DNA of 4,529 bases from the IMG/VR virus record IMGVR_UViG_2778261706_000026; one strand, given 5' to 3'. The position numbers and the translations under genes were made by a program. This DNA comes from a virus. Taxonomy: Duplodnaviria > Heunggongvirae > Uroviricota > Caudoviricetes. The notes under the pieces were generated by a model. That model worked only from the letters and a program-made list of their open reading frames with translations, was not told the origin of the DNA and searched no databases. Positions 1 to 4,529 of the stretch are shown here, piece after piece (within the stretch, counting starts at the first letter, position 1; each line of letters starts with the position of its first letter).

Positions 1-1119
1 TCAAATAACCAACTTAACCCATTCCTGACCTCGAGTATCGTTATAGCGATCGGTGGTTGCCTGGACTTTATGTCCTAGTAATGTTTTTGTATCGATACCC
101 TGTGCACGGTACAGCCGTTCTGATAGAGAGCGTTGTTCATGAAATGTTGGCGGAGTTTTTCCTGCTGGTGGAATTACCCCAGCCAGATCCCGTGCTTTGG
201 CAAAGTAGTCGCTCAGGTTGTCTTTACTCATCGGCTTCGGTTGTTTCTGGTGCCGACTATGGATTAGATATGGACTTAATATTCTGTCTCGGCACCCATC
301 AATAACTTCTTTTAACGTTATCCCAATGGCATCACAGCGTAGTGTAAGCGGTAACGCCAGACGCATTCCGGTTTTTCCCTGGGTGATATGCAAGTGTTCG
401 TTCCACACATCTGAAAAACGCATGTGGCAAATGTCATCACGGCGCTGACCAGTAACAATCGCAAGAAGCATTGCGTTACGGATAAAGTGTTTTTCAGGCG
501 TTGCATTGTAAATTTTTTGCCAGTCTTCCATGGTGAGCCTGGCTCTGGTTACTTTAGGGATCGGTTTACGGGTAGCCTCCGGAGGATTCCATCCAGGAGG
601 AACTTCCCCTGCATGCTGTGCTTCTTTATAAATATCAACCCATAATCCACGATTTACTCTCGCTGTACTGACCATGTCTTTATCCAGCCACTCATCCAGT
701 ATTAATGCAAAGTCTCTTACTTCCAGTTCTTTCAATGGGTGGTTTCCCAGACGGGAAACCAGGTATGCAGCCATTCGAGTTTTTTCTTTGTGAGTTGTAG
801 CTGCAATATCTCCATTTTTCAGTCGCGTGTCCTGTATTTTCAGATATCGATCAACCCATGCCTTTAATCTGATACCCCGACGTTTTGTTGCTGACGGACT
901 TTCATCAATTTTGCGCATGAAATATTCAGCTTCTGCTGCAGCTATTCGCTGATTGGCTGTGGAAGCGATTTTTTCTGCCTTACCTTTGTCTGTTCCGAGT
1001 CCGTGAAATTTTCCAGTCACAGGATTTTTATACTGGTAGTAAACTCTGCCAGTTCTGCGATCAAACTTTTCGTAAAGACCGGCTACGTCAGTGCTGTTTT
1101 TTCGTGGCCTCGGTGACAT
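1..1119 (-). CDS. int: Tyrosine site-specific integrase, lambda Int family (prophage integrase)
   Basis: Complete 372-aa minus-strand ORF (ATG at 1119-1117, TGA stop at 3-1). Translation carries the lambda-Int-type catalytic box (AIVTGQRRDD, TFHEQRSLSERLY, LLGHK...TDRY) and aligns by eye with lambda Int along its length. AAGGAG sits 10 nt upstream of the ATG, inside the xis coding region. The 3' end at the window edge implies attL lies just left of the window. Confidence 0.95.
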   Translation of the reverse strand: MSPRPRKNSTDVAGLYEKFDRRTGRVYYQYKNPVTGKFHGLGTDKGKAEKIASTANQRIAAAEAEYFMRKIDESPSATKRRGIRLKAWVDRYLKIQDTRLKNGDIAATTHKEKTRMAAYLVSRLGNHPLKELEVRDFALILDEWLDKDMVSTARVNRGLWVDIYKEAQHAGEVPPGWNPPEATRKPIPKVTRARLTMEDWQKIYNATPEKHFIRNAMLLAIVTGQRRDDICHMRFSDVWNEHLHITQGKTGMRLALPLTLRCDAIGITLKEVIDGCRDRILSPYLIHSRHQKQPKPMSKDNLSDYFAKARDLAGVIPPAGKTPPTFHEQRSLSERLYRAQGIDTKTLLGHKVQATTDRYNDTRGQEWVKLVI

Positions 1120-1418: not shown

Positions 1419-1856
1419 TTAAAAATCAGCCTGACTCGGGATCAGTTTTTGCCAGATAACTGAAACGTATTTTGCCTGGTAACGGGCGTCATCAAGTGCA
1501 TTATGGCGCTCACCTTCGAATGGAATAGCCGTTCTGGCATCGAAGTCTATGGCTTTCCCCAGCTCAACGATTGTGCGTACATCGCGATCGTTGTAGTAAC
1601 GCCACGGGCAGGGGATCCCCTGCCGTTCGTATGAACGGCGCAAAATCGTGTTGTCGAAGTTGGCTCCATTTCCCCAGACCTGAACAAAAAATTCACCGGA
1701 GTTTTCGTCGATAAATTCCCGCAATTGTAACAGTGCATCATCTAACGGGATTTCATCGGTCATAATGGCAGATTGCGCTTCGCGTGATTGCTTAAGCCAC
1801 CATTTAATGGTGTCCCTCGCCGTGTGCTTTCGTGTTGTGTGCCTGCTTTTTACCAC
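1419..1856 (-). CDS. DnaQ/DEDDh-like 3'-5' exonuclease, apparently N-terminally truncated (possible pseudogene)
   Basis: Translation contains an Exo II-like motif (FFVQVWGNGANFD) and an Exo III-like motif (HNALDDARYQAKY), but no N-terminal Exo I (DxE) motif. The first in-frame start is a GTG and the first 13 codons (MVKSRHTTRKHTA) look non-homologous. The frame is closed by TAA at 1902-1904 on the minus strand. The internal ATG at 1763 has no Shine-Dalgarno. Confidence 0.55.
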   Translation of the reverse strand: MVKSRHTTRKHTARDTIKWWLKQSREAQSAIMTDEIPLDDALLQLREFIDENSGEFFVQVWGNGANFDNTILRRSYERQGIPCPWRYYNDRDVRTIVELGKAIDFDARTAIPFEGERHNALDDARYQAKYVSVIWQKLIPSQADF

Positions 1857-1880
1857 GTCAGGCGAGGTGGTCCCCGTTAT

Positions 1881-1926
1881 TCCCCAACAACAAGGATCTT
1901 GTTAATCTGGATATCCCCAACAACAA
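1881..1926 (+). repeat. Perfect 13-bp direct repeat TCCCCAACAACAA (1881-1893 and 1914-1926)
   Basis: Read directly from sequence. The second copy lies inside the left inverted repeat of the cassette; the first lies 5 bp upstream of the flanking TTGTTAA direct repeat. Confidence 0.7.
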
Positions 1927-1929
1927 TAA
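1906..1929 (+). repeat. Left terminal inverted repeat of cassette (11 bp perfect, about 24 bp imperfect)
   Basis: TCTGGATATCC at 1906-1916 is the exact reverse complement of 2471-2481; contains the 8-bp palindrome GGATATCC. Confidence 0.6.
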
Positions 1930-1940
1930 GAGTATTGAAT

Positions 1941-2456
1941 GTGATCGCTGAATTAACGGCAGCAATGACGGCTATTCGTGAAACCGCCCAGATTGCAAAA
2001 CTAATGAACGAGGCAAAAACTCAAGCTGAAGTAAATGCGGCTATTGGTGAACTGAACTCAAAGCTTGCATCTATTCAGCGCGAATGCGTGTCTCTCGTTG
2101 AGCTGGTGGGCACTTATCAAGAAATAAATGCTTCTCTCAAAGCTAAAATTGCAGAATTTGAAAACTTTGAGGCTCAGACGGAAGGTTATATCCTTAGCCA
2201 ACTTGAGTCGGGAACTTTTGTGTACTCGAAGGAGGTAACCGTGAACGGCGGCAGCATAATCATGCATCTTTGTCCAAAATGTTTTGGACAAAAGATAGTA
2301 TCGATACTTCAGCCATTCCCGGTTAGAGAATATGAATTTTTTCATAAAAGCAGGTGCCTGTACTGTGAAAATCAGTTTCTTATGAATAAAAATCCGGATT
2401 ACGTATCACCTCCATCTATTGAAGAGTTGGCCAGAAAACTGAACGGCAATCTGTAG
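1941..2456 (+). CDS. Hypothetical protein: predicted N-terminal helical/coiled-coil region plus C-terminal four-cysteine zinc-ribbon-like motif (CPKC-x24-CLYC); cargo of the TIR-bounded cassette
   Basis: Long plus-strand ORF ending TAG at 2454-2456, opposite in orientation to all neighbouring prophage genes. Start is uncertain: GTG 1941 (AAGAG about 8 nt upstream), ATG 1965 or ATG 2004. The ORF-track N-terminal extension from 1788 is R/P-rich, overlaps the exonuclease remnant and the left repeat, and is rejected. The protein has only one Asp and no DDE or HUH motif, so it is unlikely to be a transposase. Confidence 0.6.
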   Translation: MIAELTAAMTAIRETAQIAKLMNEAKTQAEVNAAIGELNSKLASIQRECVSLVELVGTYQEINASLKAKIAEFENFEAQTEGYILSQLESGTFVYSKEVTVNGGSIIMHLCPKCFGQKIVSILQPFPVREYEFFHKSRCLYCENQFLMNKNPDYVSPPSIEELARKLNGNL

Positions 2457-2481: not shown

Positions 2482-2570
2482 TTGTTAAAGAGCATGCCGG
2501 ATGCTTGCTTGTGTCCGGCGCGTGTGCACCACTCTCCCCCCGTGGAGGATTCCTTAATTACCAGATTTCA

Positions 2571-3779: not shown

Positions 3780-4529
<750 letters not shown>

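Follow-up and report, generated by a model that had tools for sequence, protein, structure and literature searches.

We consider it reasonably probable that the 13-nt direct repeat TCCCCAACAACAA of an E. coli O157:H7 prophage belongs to a PsieB/sas-type control region of the lambdoid early-left operon, whose sas-like RNA would block translation of the cargo gene. The two copies of the repeat change together across about 27 repeat types in Enterobacterales prophages, and the minus strand at 1831-1926 was shown, by sequence and model comparison, to be homologous to the P22 sas antisense RNA in both sequence and hairpin structure. The P22 sas/PsieB system is known and is also found in lambda; here, judging from the sequence, it is joined to a different cargo in an O157 prophage. 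This regulatory reading, which is concrete and testable, takes the place of a "transposon scar".

The window (the whole 4,529-nt stretch that was analysed) corresponds to the left end of Sp6, a lambda-like prophage adjoining potC. Its gene order is int-xis-exo on the minus strand, the cargo on the plus strand, then ydfA-racR on the minus strand, with the following principal genes:

1-1119, minus strand: integrase, followed by excisionase
1419 to about 1820, minus strand: remnant of a 3'-5' exonuclease, its N-terminal three quarters gone
1941-2456, plus strand: cargo ORF of 171 aa (ECs_1504 / WP_000559928, RefSeq), with a coiled coil and a C-terminal CxxC...CxxC

The intact exonuclease gene measures 2.4 kb in a relative locus (L003). 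The genes beyond the cargo are ydfA-like and racR, both on the minus strand, and a ydaS-like gene that is interrupted in the window by an IS3-family element. The cargo protein belongs to PHROG 1244 (function unknown), and searches with it returned no Pfam or PADLOC family and no match to the SieB Pfam family. The cargo sits in the sieB slot, yet is not SieB.

The repeat pair and its covariation across prophages

An exact search of the window recovered exactly two plus-strand copies of TCCCCAACAACAA, at 1881-1893 and 1914-1926 (start-to-start distance 33), and allowing up to two mismatches revealed no third match anywhere in the window. The chance expectation for this 13-mer is 0.14 matches, and two were reached in 1 of 200 dinucleotide shuffles. 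Copy 2 lies inside the left arm of a 26-nt inverted repeat (1904-1929 / 2458-2483, 81% complementary), and copy 1 ends 5 nt 5' of the heptamer TTGTTAA (1899-1905), which occurs again at 2482-2488. An earlier note on this DNA had described a 13-bp direct repeat with one copy within the left arm and one outside it; both exact copies were confirmed, and the coordinates it gave all proved correct when the features were re-located by sequence search. The repeat copies and the promoter-like element between them are as follows:

1881-1893, plus strand: copy 1, an exact match overlapping the -35 region of a predicted PsieB-type promoter
1881-1893, minus strand: copy 1, which makes up the 5' arm and the GGGG loop in a conserved hairpin (fold prediction)
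1901-1908, plus strand: -10-like region of the cargo promoter, either GTTAAT (1901-1906) or TAATCT (1903-1908)
1914-1926, plus strand: copy 2, an exact match starting at the predicted +1 of the cargo mRNA

On the 3' side, copy 2 is followed by a Shine-Dalgarno sequence, AAGAG, and then by a GTG start codon at 1941.

Relatives of the locus were sought with the neighbouring conserved element TGTGCCTGCTTTTnnCCACnTCAGGCGAGGTGG (window 1838-1870) as seed, rather than with the repeat itself, and the search reached prophages of Klebsiella, Hafnia, Xenorhabdus, Photorhabdus, Providencia, Proteus, Morganella and others. In 81 of the 119 distinct related sequences from other prophages, the equivalent place holds a direct repeat that is exact over 8 nt or more, its copies lying 32-35 bp apart (33 bp for 50 of them, 34 bp for 22). 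Copy 1 does not change across E. coli-type loci. Between lineages the repeat varies in sequence and is nevertheless identical between the two copies of a locus, as in CCCCAACAACA, CCACAGTCAA, CCCCTACAG and CCCCAATGCAA; further lineage-specific repeats, CCCCAACATAA, CCCCAGCAA and CCCCACCAA, are likewise kept alike in both copies. The repeat types, which also include CCCCAACAACAA, ACCCCTACAG and TTCCACAGTCAA, are all C/A-rich.

To quantify this, we compared the copy 1 of 27 types with their own copy 2 (identity 9.56/11) and with the copy 2 of other types (6.03/11); the total own-copy identity, over about 27 repeat types, was reached by 0 of 10,000 permutations. Differences between copies showed no G-U-tolerant bias, with 40 tolerated versus 60 reverse transitions, a comparison that is uninformative. 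Single-linkage clustering of the repeat types chained all of them together and was set aside. A few cassette types, those with GATGACT leaders, have no copy 2 altogether.

Homology to the P22 sas RNA and promoter geometry

The minus strand of the repeat region carries three nested features:

1831-1926, minus strand: homologue of the sas antisense RNA, from covariance model R1 and alignment with P22 sas and the lambda sieB upstream region
1871-1896, minus strand: stem-loop UCCUUGUUGUU-GGGG-AAUAACGGGGA, 11 bp with its loop at 1882-1885, predicted as both MFE and centroid structure
1838-1870, unstranded: conserved 33-nt element TGTGCCTGCTTTTTACCACGTCAGGCGAGGTGG, which would form the 3' hairpin of the sas-like RNA on the minus strand

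Covariance model R1 drew on P22, lambda and 29 further sequences with different repeat types, excluding the E. coli type, and matched window 1831-1926 on the minus strand with 78.4 bits (E = 4.4e-18) over its full length (1-96/96), all hairpin pairs in the match being standard. The window, the P22 sas RNA and the lambda sieB upstream region also align directly. The P22 sas RNA has a length of 127 nt and a given sequence (PMC13397905, Table 2). Comparison of this sequence identified it as the minus strand of the sieB upstream unit: read 5' to 3', it first complements the start codon and Shine-Dalgarno sequence of sieB, then copy 2, and continues with a spacer, the copy-1 hairpin and the conserved element. 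In the window, going by the 127-nt length in P22, the sas-like RNA probably reaches rightward to about 1945, over the Shine-Dalgarno sequence and start codon, and the complement of copy 2 is, on this alignment, the truly antisense part of the putative RNA; the P22 sas sequence holds an equivalent complement.

The hairpin was examined in a 31-sequence alignment without the E. coli type, where 8 of its 10 pairs change on both sides. Paired cells amounted to 84.5%, versus about 40% with slid partners, and the covariation score was reached by 0 of 500 shuffles. Hairpin arms folded with their own partners gave -9.0 kcal/mol, as compared to -5.0 kcal/mol with swapped partners. The minus strand is favoured over the plus strand in mean MFE (-8.5 vs -5.6 kcal/mol), in z score (-2.2 vs -1.8) and in the number of G-U pairs (97 vs 25). 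One lineage (L132-type) has a hairpin position that pairs solely on the plus strand, as worked out by hand. RNAalifold, run on a MAFFT alignment of 60 hairpins, returned no structure because bulges shift the arms out of register, and was replaced by a named structure imposed on an improved alignment, and by partner-swap energies.

The copy-1 hairpin directly abuts the conserved 33-nt element, in which GCCUG (1859-1863) pairs with CAGGC (1841-1845) to form the predicted 3' hairpin of the sas-like RNA. This element is near-invariant in E. coli, Xenorhabdus, Hafnia, P22 and lambda, and since the pairs of this second helix never vary, they are uninformative for covariation. Other readings considered for the 33-mer were coding sequence (the N-terminal end of a basic ORF on the minus strand), an operator or the spacer of a promoter, and a DnaA-box-like site.

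An Rfam search of the window gave no match at E <= 1, and at the P22 sas locus and the lambda sieB upstream region nothing relevant was returned, nor is there a curated sas family. The lone Rfam match at E <= 1, to Listeria rliG at 1940-1981 of locus L487, is a chance match far under the gathering score. K-12 Qin is without the sas-like element (degenerate), so K-12 transcript maps cannot help.

We then turned to the promoter. The P22 locus was located by BLAST; the NC_002371 coordinates of the 2026 sRNA paper did not map. The P22-pbi annotation has P sieB, sieB and esc where expected, and its feature 'P sieB' spans TGTACCCCTACAGCGAGAAATCGGATAAACT, which is made up of copy 1 and the -10. Copy 2 of P22 begins at the 7th base past this annotated -10, and in P22, lambda and the window alike the 5' edge of the repeat falls on the predicted +1. 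Every one of the 81 two-copy variants has a TAnnnT hexamer, which in nearly every case lies 5-8 nt ahead of copy 2; this -10 is weak in the E. coli type, and reads TATAAT, TATATT or TAAACT in other lineages. The PsieB-type geometry of the window agrees with the P22 annotation, but its own hexamer (GTTAAT/TAATCT) is weak, and a generic sigma-70 promoter and terminator scan of 1700-2700, covering both strands for promoters, returned nothing. On this geometry, copy 2 is predicted to be the first 13 nt of the cargo mRNA 5' UTR.

The lambda sieB upstream region (NC_001416, about 34,385-34,482) presents the conserved element, a hairpin, TAAACT, a second ACCCCTACAG, a Shine-Dalgarno sequence and ATG, in the order TTGTGCCTGTCTTTTAACCACATCAGGCTCGGTGG, TTCTCGTGTACCCCTACAGCGAGAA, ATCGGATAAACTATTACA, ACCCCTACAG, TTTGATGAGTATAGAA and ATG, with its two ACCCCTACAG copies spaced 34 bp. 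The lambda record NC_001416 carries no annotation of a sas-type RNA.

A variable accessory slot, a model for its control, and the alternatives

Segment 1833-2493 is a portable module that is 93.6% identical in CPS-53/SfIV-like prophages, where it lies between yfdP-side genes and a LexA-like repressor, with flanks unrelated to those of the window. Partial matches to the module, mostly to its first 39-92 nt, were found in 2390 of 5426 complete E. coli genomes. Across loci from E. coli genomes and IMG/VR, ...GTTATTCCCCAACAACAAGGATTCGGTTAATCTGGATATCCCCAACAAC is the leader preceding many different ORFs, each of which has its own Shine-Dalgarno sequence 2-6 nt past copy 2. The first ORFs of 251 loci cluster into 29 unrelated families, one of which is SieB (Pfam PF14163); the slot downstream of the leader is occupied by at least 29 unrelated gene families. 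The same layout, an early-left operon with an opposite-strand gene, is found in P22, lambda, Hafnia phage Pocitis76 and SfIV.

We posit the following course of events. In a lysogen, the opposite-strand cargo would be transcribed from the weak -10 at 1901-1908, and the cargo mRNA would start at about 1913-1915, so that copy 2 would open the leader just before the Shine-Dalgarno sequence. Leftward transcription, whether by pL read-through in lytic growth or superinfection or from a promoter of its own, would produce a sas-like RNA bearing two leader-complementary stretches. The first would be the true antisense, complementary to copy 2, the Shine-Dalgarno sequence and the start codon; the second would be complementary to copy 1 and exposed in a stable stem-loop, of which it would form the loop and the 5' arm. 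By pairing with the leader, this RNA would stop translation of the cargo while the early-left operon is active, as reported for P22 SieB.

Some observations sit uneasily with a sas-type function. A leftward read-through transcript would already hold the true antisense, which leaves the second anti-leader stretch not accounted for. The E. coli-type -10 is poor, some cassettes have no copy 2 and the cargo is not SieB. Published O157 Sakai Hfq-CRAC sRNA tables list no sRNA at the locus (Sp6 1,543,5xx-1,543,7xx), which counts only weakly, as these cultures had not been induced and only Hfq-bound RNA is seen by this method.

More tentatively, the sas-like RNA could be a cassette-independent off-switch for whichever exclusion or defence gene occupies the sieB slot, with the leader motif acting as a 'specificity code' in about 27 lineage-diversified types, a proposal that we hold to be rather improbable as it stands. 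If it were true, a lytic or same-code superinfecting phage could silence the resident cargo whatever the protein encoded, and leaders that lose or change the code would escape silencing.

The repeat pair appears to have arisen by duplication. In single-hairpin relatives, such as Qin-like loci, a real Shine-Dalgarno sequence lies in the hairpin arm, an ATG occupies the position of the -10 of two-copy loci, and the boundary with the conserved element forms a TGnTAnnnT promoter (GGAAATCTATATG versus GGAAATCTGTATAAT); two-copy loci carry a pseudo-Shine-Dalgarno sequence where the single-copy relatives carry the real one. This layout suggests an ancestral duplication of about 33 bp, in which the leader and -10 of a single-hairpin ancestor would have been copied about 33 bp downstream, the old copy retaining the hairpin role and the new copy taking the leader role. 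Copy 1 looks like the old mRNA leader with its Shine-Dalgarno sequence. Given the function that we infer for the duplicated leader, selection for hairpin-leader complementarity would hold both copies identical. The suggestion that the upstream copy is the relic of an earlier or tandem terminus is borne out in part, as a duplicated old leader and Shine-Dalgarno sequence, and fails in part, as this is not a transposon end.

The same duplication could have left nothing more than a relic: the leader would have been duplicated once, copy 1 would now be just a hairpin arm and a -35, and the identity of the copies would be due to gene conversion or recombination in cassette swaps. The single-copy relatives display the ancestral state that this requires, certain cassettes do without copy 2, the breakpoints of cassettes lie at copy 2 or next to it, and the differences between copies lack a G-U bias. 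We nevertheless think this unlikely, as about 27 types, many differing at several positions, each keep their copies near-identical; conversion across 11-13 nt repeats 33 bp apart would need to occur at high frequency in many genera, and the 5' edge of the repeat falls on the predicted +1 not only in the window but also in P22 and lambda.

The copies could also be DNA operators for one protein, centred near -29 and +6 relative to the cargo promoter and about three helical turns apart, with a repressor or activator that occupies both sites and governs the promoter. Their constant spacing of 32-35 bp flanking the -10 would fit, the poor -35 consensus suggests dependence on a factor, and covariation would suit a co-evolving DNA-binding protein. 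However, the repeat type stays constant although the immunity repressors differ (LexA-like YmfK, XRE-type, RacR), the neighbours vary by lineage (exonuclease/dicB, yfdP, ral) with no co-varying regulator gene evident, and operators give no account of the other arm of the hairpin, which co-varies with copy 1. To our knowledge, no regulator has been reported to bind at the sieB upstream site in lambda, the best-studied case, which also counts against operators, and we judge them quite unlikely. The earlier proposal of paired sites for one factor survives insofar as the copies co-vary, with RNA, in the form of a sas-like antisense and the cargo leader, and not a recombinase, as the best candidate partner.

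Copy 2 could instead serve as an unstructured C/A-rich enhancer, or as an Hfq (ARN)n or GcvB-target site, with copy 1 incidental. GcvB targets CACAACA, and Hfq binds A-R-N motifs near Shine-Dalgarno sequences (PMC4104026); in the window, AACAACAAUAAG forms an (ARN)4 run immediately 5' of the Shine-Dalgarno sequence, and every repeat type is C/A-rich. A translational-enhancer role for the C/A-rich copy 2 is plausible. As an explanation of the pair this is very doubtful: copy 1, the covariation and the hairpin go unexplained, and CACAACA has no exact match here, nor does it occur in repeat types like CCACAGTCAA and CCCCTACAG. Anti-sRNAs of the AgvB/AsxR type have a length of 51-60 nt, a conserved 3' terminator domain and a position at the PR' moron site (PMC4104026), which is not the location of this locus. 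An AgvB/GcvB-sponge identity was rejected separately, on the different locus, the want of a common 3' domain and a motif, CAACAACA, that is not CACAACA; nor is the motif common to other repeat types.

The weighing of a transposon origin turns on the ends of the cassette:

1904-1929, unstranded: left arm of the inverted repeat, which brackets the cargo and holds copy 2
2458-2483, unstranded: right arm, in which the motif recurs a third time, inverted and degenerate, as TTACTGTTATGGATA
2482-2494, minus strand: boxA-like TGCTCTTTAACAA, a 13/13 match at the right slot boundary
2497-2520, minus strand: hairpin GCCGGA-N12-UCCGGC, next to boxA on its upstream side as read leftward

The terminal inverted repeats are present (26 nt, 81%), and their arms co-vary with cassette type: the inner part changes with the cassette, reading GATATCC/GGATATC, GATGACT/AGTCATC or GTAACCCTC/GAGGGTTAC (left/right arms). 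The arm-arm duplex is predicted at -27 to -28 kcal/mol, versus about -9 for shuffles. On this model it would bracket the whole antisense cargo in the leftward transcript as a long-range stem of 20 bp, and one idea is that it might be an RNase III site releasing a small RNA, whose 5' end the cut would create.

On the right, the leftward (T)GCTCTTTAACAA / TGCTCTTTAACAA at 2482-2494 is what we take to be the rrn-type boxA consensus. The right boundary CCAGATTGTTAAAGAGC is common to most E. coli-type cassettes, and the boxA-like motif is also present in 35 of 90 loci without a sas-like element, in many unrelated phage contexts. No lambda-type boxB was recognised near it. The hairpin at 2497-2520 stands in place of the cargo terminator hairpin of canonical loci, and a related sequence is found in K-12 Qin.

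Comparing the flanks of other copies of the cassette, as the earlier note had suggested, revealed that canonical loci have no TTGTTAA duplication and carry TCGGTTAA on the left; the duplication is restricted to the O157 variant. The right TTGTTAA is the 3' half of the boxA-like sequence and the left one is the O157 variant of TCGGTTAA, so the pair is not a target-site duplication, and the notion of a mobile cassette flanked by one falls. A preference for insertion into end-like sequence also finds no support, as the cassette was never found outside one slot and has no transposase: full-length matches to the module were absent from unrelated sites, all lying in the slot beside the conserved element, and the module encodes no transposase. 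The 'empty site' palindrome AATCTGG...CCAGATT was absent among the relative loci examined.

The reading of the cassette ends as IS- or MITE-like, with copy 1 as the remnant of an earlier insertion or a preferred target and TTGTTAA as a target-site duplication, fits the imperfect inverted repeat around the ORF and the heptamer on both sides in the window, but is hardly credible and is rejected given these canonical loci, the boxA origin of the right heptamer, the missing transposase, the confinement of the module to one slot beside the conserved 33-mer, and the presence of copy 1 with every cargo and in phages P22 and lambda.

Comparison with known systems

The P22-sas-like element is absent from Rfam and from the annotation of the genome and phage records examined, and adjoins a highly variable accessory slot; the same architecture recurs in phage lambda as well as in Klebsiella, Hafnia, Xenorhabdus and Proteus prophages. 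Should the RNA act as in P22, it would offer prophages a general route to silence their own exclusion or abortive-infection genes on going lytic, and would show how related phages could disarm one another. The co-varying 13-mer pair provides a handle for compensatory mutations.

The P22 sas RNA is, according to Ranade and Poteete in 1993, reportedly made by the superinfecting phage. It pairs with sieB mRNA and shifts translation from SieB to the internal product Esc (PMC12197685). P22 and the window are alike in placing in the early-left (pL) operon an RNA, predicted in the case of the window, that is antisense to the start of an accessory gene on the other strand, and they share the conserved 33-nt element, the hairpin and a direct repeat at the -35 and +1 positions, which for the window are predicted ones. 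They differ in the repeat itself (CCCCAACAACAA in the window, ACCCCTACAG in P22) and in the target, which in P22 is sieB with its internal in-frame esc and in the window an unrelated 171-aa protein. The -10 of the window is weaker than that of P22, and its cassette, unlike that of P22, is also bracketed by the 26-nt inverted repeat and the boxA-like sequence. Lambda has an architecture identical to that of the window, and carries sieB itself.

The right boundary of the slot resembles the rrn/lambdoid boxA, a NusB-NusE site, with a hairpin before it; the likeness is a sequence match only. In the RNA-OUT/RNA-IN pair of IS10, the antisense RNA is a stem-loop; its loop and the 5' strand of its stem complement the target mRNA at the extreme 5' end and in the ribosome-binding region. 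The mechanism proposed for the window resembles RNA-OUT in its working only, with no homology; here the stem-loop copy would be a paralogue 33 bp away from the true antisense segment, and there is no transposon.

The slot can also be set beside the P2/P4 hotspots, where variable genes are found in prophages and satellites (PMC9122126), and beside BstA, which comes with cognate self-immunity (PMC8585504). Variable hotspots and the window slot are alike in holding, between conserved flanks, a wide range of unrelated genes, most of them uncharacterised, with a known exclusion gene among them. As in the BstA case, the slot raises the question of how a prophage escapes its own defence, for which the cargo would be a candidate. 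In contrast to the P2/P4 hotspots, the slot of the window lies within a lambdoid pL operon, and its conserved flank would, by homology, encode an antisense RNA and not just serve as a recombination anchor.

Exonuclease junction and conserved element

The sas-like module meets a 3'-5' exonuclease (RecE-like) gene at ~1817-1832, the join falling in the middle of that gene; relative to Qin-like prophages (L008), the window is without the N-terminal three quarters of the exonuclease, as well as ydfD, dicB and dicF. One ORF spans this junction:

1419-1856, minus strand: ORF running from a GTG within the conserved 33-nt element into the exonuclease remnant

This 33-nt element (1838-1870) and its relatives hardly vary across a range that extends from E. 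coli to Xenorhabdus, whereas the flanking sequence diverges. Its two variable positions coincide with the site at which certain variants carry the DnaA-box-like sequence TTATCCACA; at loci with a single hairpin, the 3' end of the element makes a TGnTAnnnT extended -10.

The cargo slot and its right boundary

Across loci L001-L490, the slot that lies downstream of the conserved 33-mer and adjoins the sas-like element is highly varied: its first ORFs, taken from 251 loci, represent at least 29 unrelated families. SieB, the ECs1072 family and both small membrane and zinc-ribbon proteins are among them, and nearly all lack an assigned function. Within the cargo ORF of the window, a perfect 11-nt inverted repeat (TTTGTCCAAAA / TTTTGGACAAA, 2-nt gap, 2269-2292) lies at the first CxxC motif (CPKC).

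A second, larger inverted repeat (1904-1929 / 2458-2483) flanks the cargo and co-varies with cassette type, with at least four matched end pairs observed (L006, L005, L004, L050 and other loci). Its arms are predicted to form a long-range duplex of ~20 bp, whichever strand is considered, with an energy of -27 to -28 kcal/mol. This duplex could pair the 5' and 3' ends within the mRNA or, in the leftward transcript, could act as a site for RNase III.

Two further features mark the right edge of the slot:

2482-2494, minus strand: boxA-like sequence TGCTCTTTAACAA, 13/13 against the consensus
2497-2520: hairpin GCCGGA-N12-TCCGGC, ahead of the boxA-like sequence on the leftward strand

The consensus matched by TGCTCTTTAACAA is that of the rrn-type boxA. 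Together, hairpin and boxA-like sequence look like a nut-like signal, in boxB-boxA order, on the pL-direction transcript. Across canonical loci, the boundary hairpin also serves as a cargo terminator on the plus strand.

Sequence to the right of boxA is common to the window and K-12 Qin (L486): CCGGATGC...GTGTCCGGCGC...CCGTGGAG. Between ydfC and dicF of K-12 Qin, the sas-like element is degenerate and the cargo gene is absent; the covariance model gave no match in this prophage. Further right in the window (region ~3780-4529), an IS3-family transposase orfB (3822-4520, minus strand) splits a ydaS/cro-like gene that is uninterrupted in Sakai and TR01 Sp6, and the early-right region is therefore disrupted in this copy of the prophage.

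A candidate leftward promoter at the cargo start

A GAGTAT motif directly 5' of the start codon is common to several cargo families and to lambda sieB (1929-1936 in the window; ~665-672 in lambda, L487). In the Klebsiella-type IMG/VR locus L186, a 9-bp tandem duplication in the spacer (TGTATAATC TGTATAATC) places the two copies of the 13-mer direct repeat 43 bp apart and doubles the -10. On the strand opposite GAGTAT lies a -10-like hexamer, reading AATACT / TACTCT in the window, TATACT in lambda and TACTCT in P22. Its position (1929-1936, minus strand, in the window) is such that a leftward RNA would begin within or close to the complement of copy 2 of the repeat (1914-1926 in the window). 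This hexamer could be part of a promoter of the Psas type.
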